The notes under the pieces were generated by a model. It ran no database searches. It was not told the origin of the DNA and saw nothing but the letters and a program-made list of their open reading frames with translations. Both the position numbers and the translations under genes were made by a program. A DNA stretch of 41,028 nucleotides from a virus. Lineage: Duplodnaviria; Heunggongvirae; Uroviricota; Caudoviricetes. The stretch lies in IMG/VR virus record IMGVR_UViG_2660238524_000006. One strand, 5' to 3'. This document shows, piece after piece, positions 35,623 to 39,294 of this stretch; positions within the stretch are counted from its first letter, which is position 1, and each line of letters opens with the position of its first letter.

Positions 35623-38001
35623 ATGGCAGCAGTAAAAATCTCAGGTGTGCTGAAAGATGGTGCGGGAAAACCAATACAGAACTGCACTATTCAACTGAAG
35701 GCAAAGCGTAACAGCACCACGGTACTGGTGAACACGGTGGCTTCTGAAAATCCGGATGAAGCCGGACGTTACAGCATGGATGTTGAGCATGGTCAGTACA
35801 GCGTCACCCTGCTGGTTGAAGGTTTTCCGCCTTCACATGCCGGGACCATTACCGTCTATGAAGGTTCCAGACCAGGTACGCTGAATGATTTTCTCGGTGC
35901 CATGACGGAGGATGATGTCCGACCGGAGGCACTGCGCCGCTTTGAGCAGATGGTGGAAGAAGCGGCACGCAACGCTGAAGCCGCCTCTCAGAGCGCAGCG
36001 GCGGCAAAGAAATCCGAAACTGCAGCGGCATCATCGAAGAACGCGGCGAAAACCTCAGAAACGAATGCAGCTAACAGCGCACAGGCGGCAGCGACCTCAA
36101 AGACTGCATCGGCAAACTCCGCGACAGCAGCCAAAAAATCAGAAACCAACGCGAAAAATAGCGAGACAGCCGCAAAGACGAGCGAAACCAACGCAAAGTC
36201 CAGCCAGACGGCAGCGAAAACCAGCGAAACGAATGCCAAAGCCAGTGAAACTGCGGCAAAAAACAGCCAGGTTGCAGCAGCCCAAAGCGAGAGCGCGGCA
36301 GCCGGTTCTGCGACTTCAGCAGCTGGATCAGCAACTGCTGCGGCTAACAGCCGGAAAGCTGCGAAGACGAGTGAAACTAACGCAAAGTCCAGCCAGACGG
36401 CAGCGAAGACCAGCGAAACGAATGCCAAAGCCAGCGAAACTGCGGCGAAAAACAGTCAGGATGCAGCAGCCCAAAGCGAGAGTGCTGCAGCTGGTTCTGC
36501 AAGCGCGGCGGCTGCTTCTGCCACTGCATCAGCCAACAGTCAAAAAGCAGCAAAAACCAGTGAAACCAATGCAAAGACAAGCGAGACTGCAGCGGCGAAC
36601 TCGGCGAAAGCATCCGCTGCAAGCCAGACCGCTGCAAAAGCAAGTGAAGACGCAGCCAGAGAGTATGCAAGCCAGGCAGCAGATCCGTATAAATATGTCT
36701 TACAGCCGCTGCCTGATGTGTGGATACCGTTTAACGATTCACTGGATATGATTACGGGCTTTTCGCCATCATATAAAAAGATTGTTATTGGTGACGACGA
36801 AATAACGATGCCTGGCGACAAGATTGTTAAGTTTAAACGTGCATCGAAAGCAACCTATATTAACAAATCTGGTGTGCTGACAGAGGCTGCCATTGATGAG
36901 CCACGATTTGAACGTGATGGCCTGCTTATTGAGGGGCAAAGAACTAATCTTCTGCTTAATTCAACAAATCCATCTAAATGGAATAAGTCAGGCAATCTGG
37001 AACTCACAGAAATATCCACGGATTCTTTTAATTTTACTTATGGGAGATTTACTGTAAAAGATACTCTTATTGGTCAGACAAGTGCTATTAATATCGTAAC
37101 GATTTCTGGCAGTAAAGGGTTTGATGTCACAGGTGATGAAAAATATGTGACCATTTCATGCCGTGTAAGAAGTGATGTTGAAAATATAAGGTGTCGTTTA
37201 AGATTTGAACACCATGATGGTTATACTTACACTTTTTTGGGAGATGCTTACCTCAATTTATCAACACTTGTAATTGATAAAACTGGTACTGCTGCAGACC
37301 GTATTATTGCAAAGGCTGTAAAAGATGAGGTTACTGGTTGGATTTTCTATCAGGCTACAATTAATGCACTAGATACAGAGAGCATGATTGGTGCGATGGT
37401 TCAATACGCTCCTGTAAAAGGTTCAGGTACAGCATCTGGAGACTATCTGGATATCGCAACTCCACAAGTGGAAGGTGGATCAAGTGCTTCGTCATTTATT
37501 GTAACTGATATAACTGCAAGCACTCGCGCAAGCGATATGGTGACAGTCCCAATCAAGAATAACCTTTATAATCTTCCTTTTACGGTTCTTTGTGAGGTAC
37601 ATAAGAACTGGTATAAAACGCCAAATGCAGCACCGCGTGTTTTTGATACCGGCGGTCATCAAACCGGAGCGGCTATTATTCTTGGCTTCGGTCGTTCAAC
37701 AGATTACGACGGATTTCCTTATTGTGATATAGGTTTGGCTAACAGACGGGTAAACGAAAACGCATCGCTTGAAAAAATGGTTATGGGGATGCGTGTAAAG
37801 TCAGATCAGTCTACGTGCTCAGTAAGTAACGGGCGTATATCCAGCGAAAAGAAAGCCACATGGTCCTATATTCAGAACTCCGCAATTATCCGTATTGGAG
37901 GCCAGACTACAGCCGGGTTGCGTCATTTATTTGGTCATGTCAGGAATTTCAGAATATGGCACAAGGCATTGACTGATGCTCAGATGGGGGAGTCAATCTA
38001 A
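35623..38001 (+). CDS. stf: side tail fibre protein (Stf-like N-terminus, Ala/Ser/Thr repeat shaft, LamG-like C-terminal domain)
   Basis: MAAVKISGVLKDGAGKPIQNCTIQLKAKRNSTTVLVNTV... matches the lambda Stf N-terminus; C-terminus ends ...VRNFRIWHKALTDAQMGESI. Confidence 0.8.
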   Translation: MAAVKISGVLKDGAGKPIQNCTIQLKAKRNSTTVLVNTVASENPDEAGRYSMDVEHGQYSVTLLVEGFPPSHAGTITVYEGSRPGTLNDFLGAMTEDDVRPEALRRFEQMVEEAARNAEAASQSAAAAKKSETAAASSKNAAKTSETNAANSAQAAATSKTASANSATAAKKSETNAKNSETAAKTSETNAKSSQTAAKTSETNAKASETAAKNSQVAAAQSESAAAGSATSAAGSATAAANSRKAAKTSETNAKSSQTAAKTSETNAKASETAAKNSQDAAAQSESAAAGSASAAAASATASANSQKAAKTSETNAKTSETAAANSAKASAASQTAAKASEDAAREYASQAADPYKYVLQPLPDVWIPFNDSLDMITGFSPSYKKIVIGDDEITMPGDKIVKFKRASKATYINKSGVLTEAAIDEPRFERDGLLIEGQRTNLLLNSTNPSKWNKSGNLELTEISTDSFNFTYGRFTVKDTLIGQTSAINIVTISGSKGFDVTGDEKYVTISCRVRSDVENIRCRLRFEHHDGYTYTFLGDAYLNLSTLVIDKTGTAADRIIAKAVKDEVTGWIFYQATINALDTESMIGAMVQYAPVKGSGTASGDYLDIATPQVEGGSSASSFIVTDITASTRASDMVTVPIKNNLYNLPFTVLCEVHKNWYKTPNAAPRVFDTGGHQTGAAIILGFGRSTDYDGFPYCDIGLANRRVNENASLEKMVMGMRVKSDQSTCSVSNGRISSEKKATWSYIQNSAIIRIGGQTTAGLRHLFGHVRNFRIWHKALTDAQMGESI
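36172..36549 (+). repeat. tandem direct repeat inside stf, 189-bp unit x2 (degenerate copies extend to about 36000-36660)
   Basis: Near-identical copies start at 36172 and 36361, encoding KTSETNAKSSQTAAKTSETNAKASETAAKNSQ... Confidence 0.7.
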
Positions 38002-38282
38002 TGAAAGATTTAACACTCAAATTTGCAGACAGGGCCGACTTTTCGGCCTTTATGGATAGCATTGGCTATTATGATGACGAGTCGATGCAGGATGATATTC
38101 TTATTGACGTGATAGGTAACGTGTACAAAGAAACCGGAGAACTGACTGAAGATGGCGAACCGGTATGTGTTAAGGAAGATGGATATTATGTAAACGTGCG
38201 CATCATTAATGATGCAAAAAAATCGTCAATATTCGATGAATACGCGGTTGTAGTTGAACATCAACTTCGTGGCTGGATGTGA
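38001..38282 (+). CDS. hypothetical acidic protein (93 aa), translationally coupled to stf
   Basis: ATG at 38001 overlaps the stf TAA (ctaATGa); no family recognised. Confidence 0.45.
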   Translation: MKDLTLKFADRADFSAFMDSIGYYDDESMQDDILIDVIGNVYKETGELTEDGEPVCVKEDGYYVNVRIINDAKKSSIFDEYAVVVEHQLRGWM

Positions 38283-38291
38283 GGGAGACAA

Positions 38292-38996
38292 ATGGCTACA
38301 TCGACAGTAATTCCAGGAGACATCACCACGTTAAAGGGAGATGTCAGTAAAGCCAAGGAAGATATTTCCTCAATTAACGGAAAAGTATCAACGCTTCAGG
38401 CTGATATGACCAGTGCAAAGCAGGATATCAGCACCAGATACACAAAAACTGAAGTTGATAATAAGCTGAAAAACAAACTGGAAGTGAACGCTCTGGAAAG
38501 CGGTCGTTATGGTGGAGATTTTTACCCGTTGACTGGCCGTGAAGCGTTTTATTTGTGGGGATTGGGCACGACTACAGCGGCGGCAAACCTTTATCTTAAT
38601 CCTGACCCCGCAATTTCGTCTGTGCTGCGGTCAACATCGTCTATCCGCTATAAACATTCAGTAGAGACAATAGATTCAGAGCACGCCGATCTCATTTTCA
38701 GGATGCGCCCTGTGTGGTACAGGTCACAATGCGAAAATGACAGGCGTGACTGGGGATTCTACGGATTGATTGCCGAGGAAGTAGGAGAAATTGCCCCTCA
38801 GTTTGTACACTGGCGACCAGCTAACGAAGATGATGCACCGGAAGCTATTTCCAGCAATGGCCTTGTTGCCGAAGGTGTAATGTACGAACGTCTGGTTGTT
38901 CCACTGATTCACCATATCCAGAAGCTGACTGAAAGAGTTGATGAACTTGAGTCAGAATTAAAGTTGTTATCCGTTTCCCGAAGCGATATCGGATAA
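38292..38996 (+). CDS. short fibre-like protein with C-terminal peptidase-S74 intramolecular chaperone domain
   Basis: N-terminal heptad-like coiled coil; C-terminal SSIRYKHSVETI ... WGFYGLIAEEVGEIAPQFV ... ERLVVPLIHHIQKLTERVDELESEL matches the S74 chaperone domain of phage fibres and spikes. Confidence 0.6.
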   Translation: MATSTVIPGDITTLKGDVSKAKEDISSINGKVSTLQADMTSAKQDISTRYTKTEVDNKLKNKLEVNALESGRYGGDFYPLTGREAFYLWGLGTTTAAANLYLNPDPAISSVLRSTSSIRYKHSVETIDSEHADLIFRMRPVWYRSQCENDRRDWGFYGLIAEEVGEIAPQFVHWRPANEDDAPEAISSNGLVAEGVMYERLVVPLIHHIQKLTERVDELESELKLLSVSRSDIG

Positions 38997-39006
38997 AGGA
39001 GGAGTA

Positions 39007-39294
39007 ATGGATATAAGCCCCTTACTTCATGCACTTTGTGCTGTGGCTGCGCAAACACTGGTTGGTCTTTTTACCGGAAACTGGGCTTACGGAGCGATAG
39101 CCGGTTGTACGTTCTTCATTGCGCGTGAACACACCCAGGCAGAATATCGCTGGATCGAAATGTTCGGGCATGGCAAGCGAATGAATATGCCGTGGTGGGG
39201 CGGTTTTGATCCGCGCGCGTGGGATGTGACAAGCCTGATGGATTTTGCTGTGCCGGTGGTGGCGTGTCTGCTGATCTGGATGTTGATCCGTTAA
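39007..39294 (+). CDS. small membrane protein (95 aa) next to attR
   Basis: Perfect AAGGAGG RBS; hydrophobic N- and C-terminal segments; followed by a hairpin. Confidence 0.5.
   Translation: MDISPLLHALCAVAAQTLVGLFTGNWAYGAIAGCTFFIAREHTQAEYRWIEMFGHGKRMNMPWWGGFDPRAWDVTSLMDFAVPVVACLLIWMLIR

Follow-up and report, generated by a model that had tools for sequence, protein, structure and literature searches.

The lambdoid prophage represented by the IMG/VR record IMGVR_UViG_2660238524_000006 (41,028 nucleotides, the whole of which is referred to here as the window) carries, directly downstream of its side tail fibre gene stf, three tightly packed plus-strand open reading frames (ORFs) that we designate g1, g2 and g3. 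The order in this right arm of the prophage is J, lom, IS200C, stf, g1, g2, g3, approximately 350 bp of further phage DNA, a piece of a transfer RNA (tRNA) gene for serine (tRNA-Ser) and zinT (Table 1). A preliminary description, drawn from the sequence of the window alone, had regarded the three genes as one module standing in the place of the lambda tfa gene, in an arrangement that was not recognised. The tight linkage stands, but comparison with other phages shows that these are three separable units rather than a single module, with g1 accompanying the C-terminal module of the Stf protein, g2 being an optional distal fibre, and g3 an independent gene. Together, stf, g1 and g2 appear to form a common, horizontally mobile and modular side tail fibre cassette, an arrangement that is not unusual.

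The RefSeq annotation of Escherichia coli strain 4/0, which is 100% identical here, calls the same three coding sequences that the preliminary description had placed at these positions, naming them "hypothetical protein" (g1), "tail fiber domain-containing protein" (g2) and "hypothetical protein" (g3). It starts stf at 35623; the ORF list prepared for the window had an upstream ATG at 35593, giving an 802-amino-acid (aa) ORF. The overlap of g1 with stf amounts to one base shared by the stf stop codon and the g1 ATG (TAATG), the gaps that follow are only 9 nt (g1 to g2) and 10 nt (g2 to g3), and the Shine-Dalgarno sequence of g3, previously called perfect, reads AAGGAGG and ends 4 nt before the ATG.

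Table 1 Coordinates of the stf-g1-g2-g3 locus and of its features within the window.
Feature	Position	Strand	Size or basis
stf, proximal side tail fibre	35623..38001	+	792 aa from the RefSeq start
g1, acidic protein	38001-38282	+	93 aa
g2, S74-ended protein	38292-38996	+	234 aa
g2 residues 1-25, conserved N-terminal adaptor (MATSTVIPGDITTLKG…)	38292..38366	+	alignment; phrog_4563 match at positions 1-32
g2 residues ~9-65, heptad coiled-coil stalk	38316..38486	+	weak coiled-coil family matches; heptad length variants
g2 residues 66-115, small distal tip directly upstream of the predicted cleavage site	38487..38636	+	candidate receptor-binding tip
g2 residues 116-234, peptidase-S74 intramolecular chaperone domain	38637..38993	+	Pfam PF13884 and PDB matches
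g2 predicted catalytic residues Ser116 and Lys121	38637-38639 and 38652-38654	+	
Shine-Dalgarno sequence of g3	38996..39002	+	read from the sequence; includes the last base of the g2 stop codon
g3, membrane protein	39007-39294	+	95 aa
Hairpin without T-run, directly 3' of g3	39302..39337	+	RNA fold -20.6 kcal/mol, z -2.2
Prophage/host junction, 3' part of tRNA-Ser at the attachment site	39647..39712	+	host DNA (zinT side) onward

Far from being novel, the arrangement is found in many bacterial and phage genomes. Of 5426 complete E. coli genomes, 720 (about one in eight) match the 1.4-kb region that holds g1, g2 and g3 over at least 80% of its length, and 1890 (about one in three) match some part of it; the order stf-g1-g2 is also present, partly annotated, in BASEL phages. 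Among isolated lambdoid phages, IdasGreatGrand and PhiR49_1 carry the whole module, and Tritos, 2G7b, HannyBb and others carry it with a different middle gene. Comparison of gene order with related prophages and beyond, as had been suggested, recovered the same succession of a fibre gene, a ~92-aa gene and a gene for an S74-ended protein in the lambdoids Tritos, PhiR55_1 and PhiR47_1, in the Nonagvirus ESCO3, in the Drexlerviridae KarlJaspers and PeterMerian, in the Tequintavirus IrisVonRoten (Gp22/23/24) and in the Dhillonvirus "rolling", and in these loci the start of the ~92-aa gene overlaps the fibre stop. The lambdoid Lambda_2E9 and the rV5-like phage "nomo" keep the fibre type without g2, which is therefore dispensable for this type of Stf.

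Structurally, Stf consists of an N-terminal virion-attachment domain, a shaft of Ala/Ser/Thr-rich repeats and a C-terminal module of ~420 aa with a lectin-like end (…IRIGGQTTAGLRHLFGHVRNFRIWHKALTD…). The N-terminus matches Pfam phage_tail_N with 225 bits, and its first 130 aa are 91-98% identical to those of other lambdoid Stf proteins. Over residues 445-646 of the 802-aa ORF, the C-terminal region scores 58.5 bits (cut-off 36) for the NCBIfam family GTA_spike_fiber (NF048003), and the module also matches the Rcc01080 head spike fibre (PDB 6tb9, E 2.7e-4). Across lambdoid, Drexlerviridae, Nonagvirus, Dhillonvirus, T5-like and rV5-like fibres, these last 420 aa retain 47-86% identity to the window sequence and close with a shared ending, …IRIGGQT..G.RHLFGH.RN.RIWHK.L.D.Q…. 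The N-termini of the fibres differ between phage families, because each matches its own tail, whereas the last ~420 aa are homologous throughout. Pfam and NCBIfam searches returned neither an S74 domain in Stf itself nor a Tfa/Caudo_TAP homologue for it. Within the Ala/Ser/Thr-rich shaft we also observed a 189-nt tandem duplication (36118-36495) whose copies are 83% identical, and shaft length appears to change by whole repeat blocks.

The g2 product had been described as a short coiled coil followed by a C-terminal peptidase-S74 domain, and both parts were recovered. Residues 116-172 score 27.3 bits for Pfam Peptidase_S74 (PF13884; gathering score 22), and the S74 domain as a whole makes up the last 119 aa, C-terminal to the heptad stalk. 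This region matches residues 952-1068 of a T5-type L-shaped tail fibre (8hqz, E 5.5e-7) and the ICA domain of MYRF (7dc3, E 0.023). The SSIRYK motif, already pointed out for its Ser and Lys, runs from S116 to K121 and aligns with TSGIEYK of 8hqz, and the S-x-x-R-x-K pattern is kept in all aligned homologues (equivalents SDRDLK, SSERYK, SSSRYK and SDSRLK). In MYRF, cleavage falls N-terminal to the catalytic Ser; by analogy, g2 is predicted to be cut between T115 and S116 through autoproteolysis by Ser116/Lys121, which would leave a mature chain of 115 aa and 12.4 kDa, close to the ~110 aa estimated earlier, and a released chaperone of 13.8 kDa. The stalk has weak matches to Lpp leucine zipper-like families in Pfam and to the coiled coil of the P22 tail needle gp26, and would be the part through which g2 forms trimers. 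Among natural variants of the distal fibre, differences in length are exactly 7 or 14 residues, as expected if the heptad register is under selection. A weak match of g2 in PADLOC-DB (E 0.017) is at the level of the coiled coil.

Upstream of, and partly within, the stalk, the first ~20-25 aa of g2 form an adaptor whose conservation extends over eight distal fibres of five phage groups, the alignment of g2 including Tritos, ESCO3, PhiR55_1, PhiR47_1, KarlJaspers, PeterMerian and IrisVonRoten Gp24. The middle of these proteins varies, and their total lengths range from 225 to 574 aa. The IrisVonRoten counterpart of the adaptor sequence MATSTVIPGDITTLKG is MVTKTVIPTDITKLKN. In the Dhillonvirus "rolling", an unannotated ORF that starts with MVTKTNIPADITALQN lies directly after the g1 homologue and is cut by the end of the record (L019, 4780-5602); it is a distal-fibre gene that was missed, or split by linearisation of the genome. 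Searches with the g2 N-terminus did not pick up DT57C LtfB or phiEco32 gp15, and the g2 adaptor therefore differs from theirs. Residues 66-115, the tip, show conservation among the short forms and can be aligned with the part of IrisVonRoten Gp24 that precedes its cleavage site, a segment described as a "T5-like RBD2" (PMC11990801), such that g2 would correspond to Gp24 minus its large Gp12-like domain. Near-identical forms of 223-234 aa fill clusters of 2928 and 650 sequences, and homologues of 225-231 aa, 55-61% identical to g2, occur in some forty plaque-forming virulent T1-like phages.

The closest described counterpart is IrisVonRoten (Bas32), in which Gp24 was modelled with AlphaFold-Multimer as a distal fibre on the proximal fibre Gp22, whose C-terminal end bears a protruding galectin-like domain (PMC11990801). 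The numbering of the proximal fibre differs within that paper (Gp22 in the legend of Fig. 12, Gp23 in the text); GenBank bas32_0023 is the 92-aa homologue of g1, which the paper otherwise does not discuss. Gene order is the same in the two phages and the proteins are homologous: the C-terminal module is common to both proximal fibres, whose last 200 aa are 72% identical, g1 and its 92-aa counterpart have 39% identity, and the distal fibres have the N-terminal adaptor and the C-terminal S74 chaperone in common. The two loci differ in the anchor, which is lambdoid (phage_tail_N) in the window Stf and of T5 type in IrisVonRoten, in the absence of g3 from IrisVonRoten, and in the length of the distal fibre, with g2 (234 aa versus 574 aa for Gp24) lacking the Gp12-like receptor-binding domain while keeping stalk, small tip and chaperone.

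A second point of comparison is provided by the branched LtfA/LtfB fibres of DT57C and DT571/2, which carry S74 domains and were established genetically (PMC4728585; PMC10713586). There, two fibre proteins are found, the second without a virion-attachment domain and carried by the first, with autocleavable S74 chaperone domains, a plan that our locus would share, and the DT57C genetics attribute an added host specificity to the second fibre protein (PMC4728585, PMC10713586). In contrast to the window, however, both LtfA and LtfB carry S74 and no small gene lies between them, whereas here Stf has a lectin-like end and g1 intervenes. In KarlJaspers (Bas06) and PeterMerian (Bas05), the g2 orthologues are 55-61% identical over ~91-97% of g2, fall in the same length class and occupy the same position after a fibre and a 92-aa gene, although these are virulent T1-like phages with another fibre N-terminus and no g3. 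With respect to lambda, the locus lies in the same place as stf-tfa (after J and lom, next to attR) and Stf has the same N-terminal anchor domain, but the C-terminal type of Stf is different, and three unrelated genes stand in place of tfa, with no Tfa/Caudo_TAP homologue among them. Stf, as the proximal segment, carries a virion-attachment domain and g2 lacks one but has a conserved adaptor, and the fibre part of the cassette would belong to the two-segment lateral fibres with S74 chaperones, an already known kind.

Taking these lines together, we read g2 as a full-length, minimal distal fibre within the fibre cassette, with a probability of roughly 60%. Mechanistically, Stf trimers would anchor to the tail by the lambdoid N-terminus, and g1, coupled translationally to stf through the overlapping stop and start codons, would assist or cap the lectin-like head. 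The chains of g2 would trimerise via the heptad stalk with the help of the S74 chaperone, which would then remove itself by Ser116/Lys121, and the mature needle of 3 x 115 aa would dock by its adaptor on the proximal fibre, adding a second, small binding tip. Several observations weigh against this reading. The ~230-aa homologues in the fibre loci of KarlJaspers and PeterMerian were annotated by the BASEL authors as "putative lateral tail fiber chaperone"; in nine loci, no clear co-variation was found of the g2 adaptor with g1 or with the Stf C-terminus, or of g1 with the Stf C-terminus, and we therefore propose no docking site; and in this prophage the IS200C insertion may have a polar effect on stf-g1-g2-g3.

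The chaperone label points to an alternative, namely that g2 acts as a stand-alone chaperone that folds the Stf trimer, or its lectin-like head, in trans and does not enter the virion. The GenBank names of the KarlJaspers, PeterMerian, ESCO3 and SECphi27 homologues ("putative lateral tail fiber chaperone" or "endosialidase chaperone") agree with it, as do the lack of an S74 domain or a Tfa in Stf and the shortness of the mature part of g2, although in KarlJaspers and PeterMerian the name is itself an annotation. S74 domains are described as acting in cis on the chain that carries them, which counts against folding in trans, and the same C-terminal module is found in fibres of phages that have no g2. 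Furthermore, the adaptor and stalk of g2, which a pure chaperone would not need, are conserved and common to long distal fibres with real receptor-binding domains (PMC11990801). We consider a chaperone-only g2 improbable. A further reading, which the preliminary description had itself offered as a way in which its own could fail, makes g2 the leftover C-terminal end of a longer fibre gene that decayed in this prophage. It is consistent with the fact that, within the 1385 positions of the long-fibre family phrog_3299, only the last ~240 (1147-1384) align with g2, and with the IS200 as a sign that insertions have hit this prophage, but is hardly credible given an ORF with its own start and an adaptor homologous to those of other distal fibres, the clusters of 2928 and 650 sequences, a module intact in 720 genomes and in isolated lambdoid phages, and the 225-231-aa homologues in virulent phages, where pseudogenes are unlikely to persist.

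Between the two fibre genes lies g1, whose product is acidic as previously described (isoelectric point 4.2; 21 Asp and Glu versus 9 Lys and Arg). It matches phrog_1361 (E 1e-46), a family annotated as of function unknown, and no match to it was found in PADLOC, nor in Pfam, NCBIfam or PDB up to E-values of 1 to 10; searches of g1 and g2 against the tail-fibre-assembly families (lambda Tfa and Caudovirales) were likewise negative, with g2 matching only S74 and coiled-coil families. A beta-alpha-beta…beta-alpha-beta fold is predicted for g1, the AlphaFold2 model having a predicted local distance difference test score (pLDDT) of only 58.5. Homologues detected by tblastn in 181 phage records span lambdoids, Drexlerviridae, Dhillonvirus, Queuovirinae, T5-like and rV5-like phages, and the matches listed typically run across the end of a gene annotated as a tail fibre. 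All of the checked fibres that precede g1 share the lectin-ended C-terminal module and the IRIGGQT…RHLFGH.RN.RIW ending. The gene occurs with and without g2, Lambda_2E9 and "nomo" having an Stf-type fibre and g1 only. In a P1-like contig (L023, 800-5288; GCA_032055785.1), two tandem units, each of a fibre ended by Pfam Laminin_G_3 and homologous to the Stf C-terminal module and a g1-like protein of 94/95 aa, adjoin the P1 tail-fibre R, LydB and DarA genes and are followed by a g3 homologue. In addition, near-identical g2 C-terminal parts occur with g1 variants that have only 32% identity, and closely related g2 adaptors and C-terminal parts with g1 variants of 32-38% identity. Such patterns of co-occurrence indicate that g1 goes with the C-terminal fibre head of Stf and not with g2.

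Functionally, we give about even odds to g1 being an assembly partner of the Stf C-terminal module, most probably as an assembly factor or as a small subunit bound to it, which would make g1 the functional counterpart of Tfa while being unrelated to it. The main alternative draws on the T4 long tail fibre, in which monomeric gp35 links gp34 and gp36: g1 would be a structural joint that remains in the fibre, caps the lectin-like end of Stf and offers a socket to the distal fibre. It does sit between the proximal and the distal fibre gene wherever both exist, and the BASEL authors labelled its IrisVonRoten homologue, Gp23, a "tail fiber protein", with one sentence of PMC11990801 having the distal fibre connect to Gp23. 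A joint nevertheless seems less likely, since g1 is equally present where there is no distal fibre gene to be joined (Lambda_2E9, nomo), related g2 adaptors and C-terminal parts accompany the divergent g1 variants noted above, and the figure legend of that paper assigns the proximal fibre to Gp22, not Gp23. We found no paper that deals with the ~92-aa protein of the g1 type, with the g3 family or with the short S74 protein in its own right.

The third gene, g3, is phage DNA and not a gene of the host flank: host DNA begins at about 39647, downstream of it, and homologues occur in isolated phage genomes, which disposes of the possibility, left open in the preliminary description, of a conserved host gene. 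Its product had been called a membrane protein, and this is borne out by hydrophobic stretches at residues 3-39 and 72-95 and by an AlphaFold2 model with three helices (5-23, 26-53 and 74-94; pLDDT 91.7). It matches phrog_1443 (E 9.5e-57), again annotated as of function unknown. The family motif reads REHTQAEYRWI…R..MPWWGGFD.R.W; the segment IAREHTQAEYRWI…R..MPWWGGFD.R.W hardly varies among close relatives, and in distant members H8, R40, E41 and W72 are invariant and Q44, A45, E46 and P83 nearly so. Residues 40-70 hold five Lys or Arg, which by the positive-inside rule suggests that the conserved loop would be cytoplasmic.

The family is large: clustering at 90% identity gives at least 575 groups and clustering at 50% identity gives 444 (1.84 billion representatives searched). 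Its members come from Escherichia, Salmonella, Citrobacter, Leclercia, Enterobacter, Aeromonas and Comamonas, with a further member in a Halomonas phage. No domain fusion was seen among the 150 matches listed, all of which are standalone proteins of 58-146 aa. Relatives were sought without success in Pfam, NCBIfam, PADLOC, PDB sequences, PDB folds and BFVD, and neither g1 nor g3 matched the defence-system models of PADLOC-DB. Cor and Llp are outer-membrane lipoproteins, each matched to one receptor. Like Cor of phi80, N15 and T1-like phages, to which the preliminary description had likened its position, and Llp of T5, g3 encodes a small envelope protein beside receptor-binding-protein genes; unlike them, it has no lipobox (the N-terminus, MDISPLLHALC, lacks a basic n-region, and the residue before its only early Cys, Cys11, is Leu), is predicted to have three membrane helices, and is near-invariant beside receptor-binding proteins of every specificity. 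No sequence similarity of g3 to Cor or Llp was found.

In 11 of the 14 contexts that we inspected, g3 directly adjoins a tail-fibre, tail-fibre-assembly, tailspike or J gene. The contexts include the window and other lambdoid Stf loci; the P22-like phage Gally, where it follows the tailspike; phiHAP-1, after tfa and before the sheath gene; a P2-like Aeromonas prophage; the P1-like contig, after the fibre and g1 units; Citrobacter and Salmonella prophages with pectate-lyase spikes, the Salmonella one placing it between two tailspike genes; Comamonas, after GpJ; an Aeromonas jumbo phage, before the tailspike; and the siphovirus 6947, after an S74 tailspike, with no integrase in the inspected region. 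The remaining three are an Aeromonas chromosome, a contig with toxin-antitoxin, Fic and transposase genes, and a phage with unannotated neighbours. Judged by this synteny, g3 appears to associate with receptor-binding-protein loci in general. On the Aeromonas rivipollensis chromosome (L014, 6001-6309), a lone homologue is flanked by genes for pirin and a RIO1 kinase; two genes for lipid A acyltransferases lie close by, no phage gene is found within 6 kb, and the homologue may be a cellular member of the family. In Lambda_2E9 (L004, 6399-9848), a sitABCD manganese/iron transporter operon is carried as cargo directly after the g3 homologue.

The preliminary description had pointed to this position as one favoured by superinfection-exclusion or lysogenic-conversion genes, and we propose, tentatively, that g3 may be an envelope or exclusion accessory of the moron type. 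Rather than forming part of the virion, the protein would insert into the inner membrane of the cell, be it lysogenic or producing phage, and act on the envelope or on incoming phage. In Gally, g3 follows a good tailspike terminator, has a promoter-like site and its own Shine-Dalgarno sequence and lies beside int, a layout that by its sequence signals resembles moron architecture, i.e., a separate promoter-gene unit, and g3 is missing from every inspected virulent phage that carries g1 and g2. Speaking against such a role, no promoter of its own was found for g3 on the plus strand between 37227 and 39294, and the gene is therefore read with the late operon here; its occurrence in Aeromonas jumbo phages, in a virulent-looking siphovirus and as a chromosomal copy outside any visible prophage makes for a poor fit to a purely lysogenic role.

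Alternatively, g3 could work in the lytic cycle and not in the lysogen, as a late membrane protein that is tied to receptor-binding proteins in general and, for example, alters or shuts down a common step of surface-glycan synthesis, which would keep progeny from sticking to the dying cell, or tunes lysis. Here g3 starts 10 nt after g2 without a promoter of its own, elsewhere it is embedded in structural operons (between tfa and the sheath gene in phiHAP-1, between two tailspike genes in the Salmonella prophage), Aeromonas jumbo phages have it, as does the siphovirus without an integrase in the inspected region, there next to the tailspike gene, and its sequence hardly changes with the receptor-binding protein beside it. 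Against this, virulent Drexlerviridae, Queuovirinae and T5-like phages have the other cassette genes but no g3, in Gally g3 forms a separate unit after the late-operon terminator and next to int, and chromosomal copies exist, such that we regard a lytic-cycle function as possible but rather unlikely. More speculative still, and in our view somewhat less likely, is the proposal that g3 founds an undescribed class of phage membrane proteins tied to receptor-binding-protein loci, with g1 representing a new family of partners of lectin-ended fibres. Were this true, g3 would be an inner-membrane, three-helix protein with an invariant His, Arg-Glu and Trp site whose target is conserved from Enterobacteria to Aeromonas, Halomonas and Comamonas, the candidates being a common step of surface-glycan or envelope biogenesis or a DNA-entry route, and it would provide exclusion or protect progeny irrespective of the receptor bound by the adjacent fibre or spike.

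Several features around the cassette complete the picture of the locus. The hairpin directly 3' of g3 was not called by the terminator scan and may mark the end of the operon. The prophage boundary was placed by comparison with prophage-free E. coli genomes, the alignment of which begins at window position 39647, where their intact tRNA-Ser adjoins zinT. ARAGORN found no complete tRNA at the junction, and weak Rfam matches there (the 3' end of transfer-messenger RNA and a plastid untranslated-region family) represent only the tRNA-like piece. No second copy of the attachment site was found in the window, because the window starts inside the prophage, as is concluded from four 15-nt iteron-like repeats (…TGACCCGT…) within an ORF at 3311-3385 that resemble a lambdoid replication origin. 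IS200C (34869-35602, with tnpA at ~35044-35502) interrupts the short lom-stf spacer, a spot that spans only ~65 bp in related phages, and is bounded by hairpins at 34874-34895 and 35584-35602, the stf-proximal one of which contains the upstream stf start of the ORF list.

In a cassette carried by about one in eight complete E. coli genomes, g1 and g3 are annotated only as "hypothetical protein", and g3 recurs beside the receptor-binding genes of unrelated phages while staying very conserved. Reading the fibre genes as a proximal fibre, its partner and a minimal distal fibre would provide a usable annotation for thousands of prophages and for host-range phages of the BASEL type. Under the same reading, the conserved adaptor of g2 would be a natural place at which to exchange the distal tips of lambda-type delivery particles.

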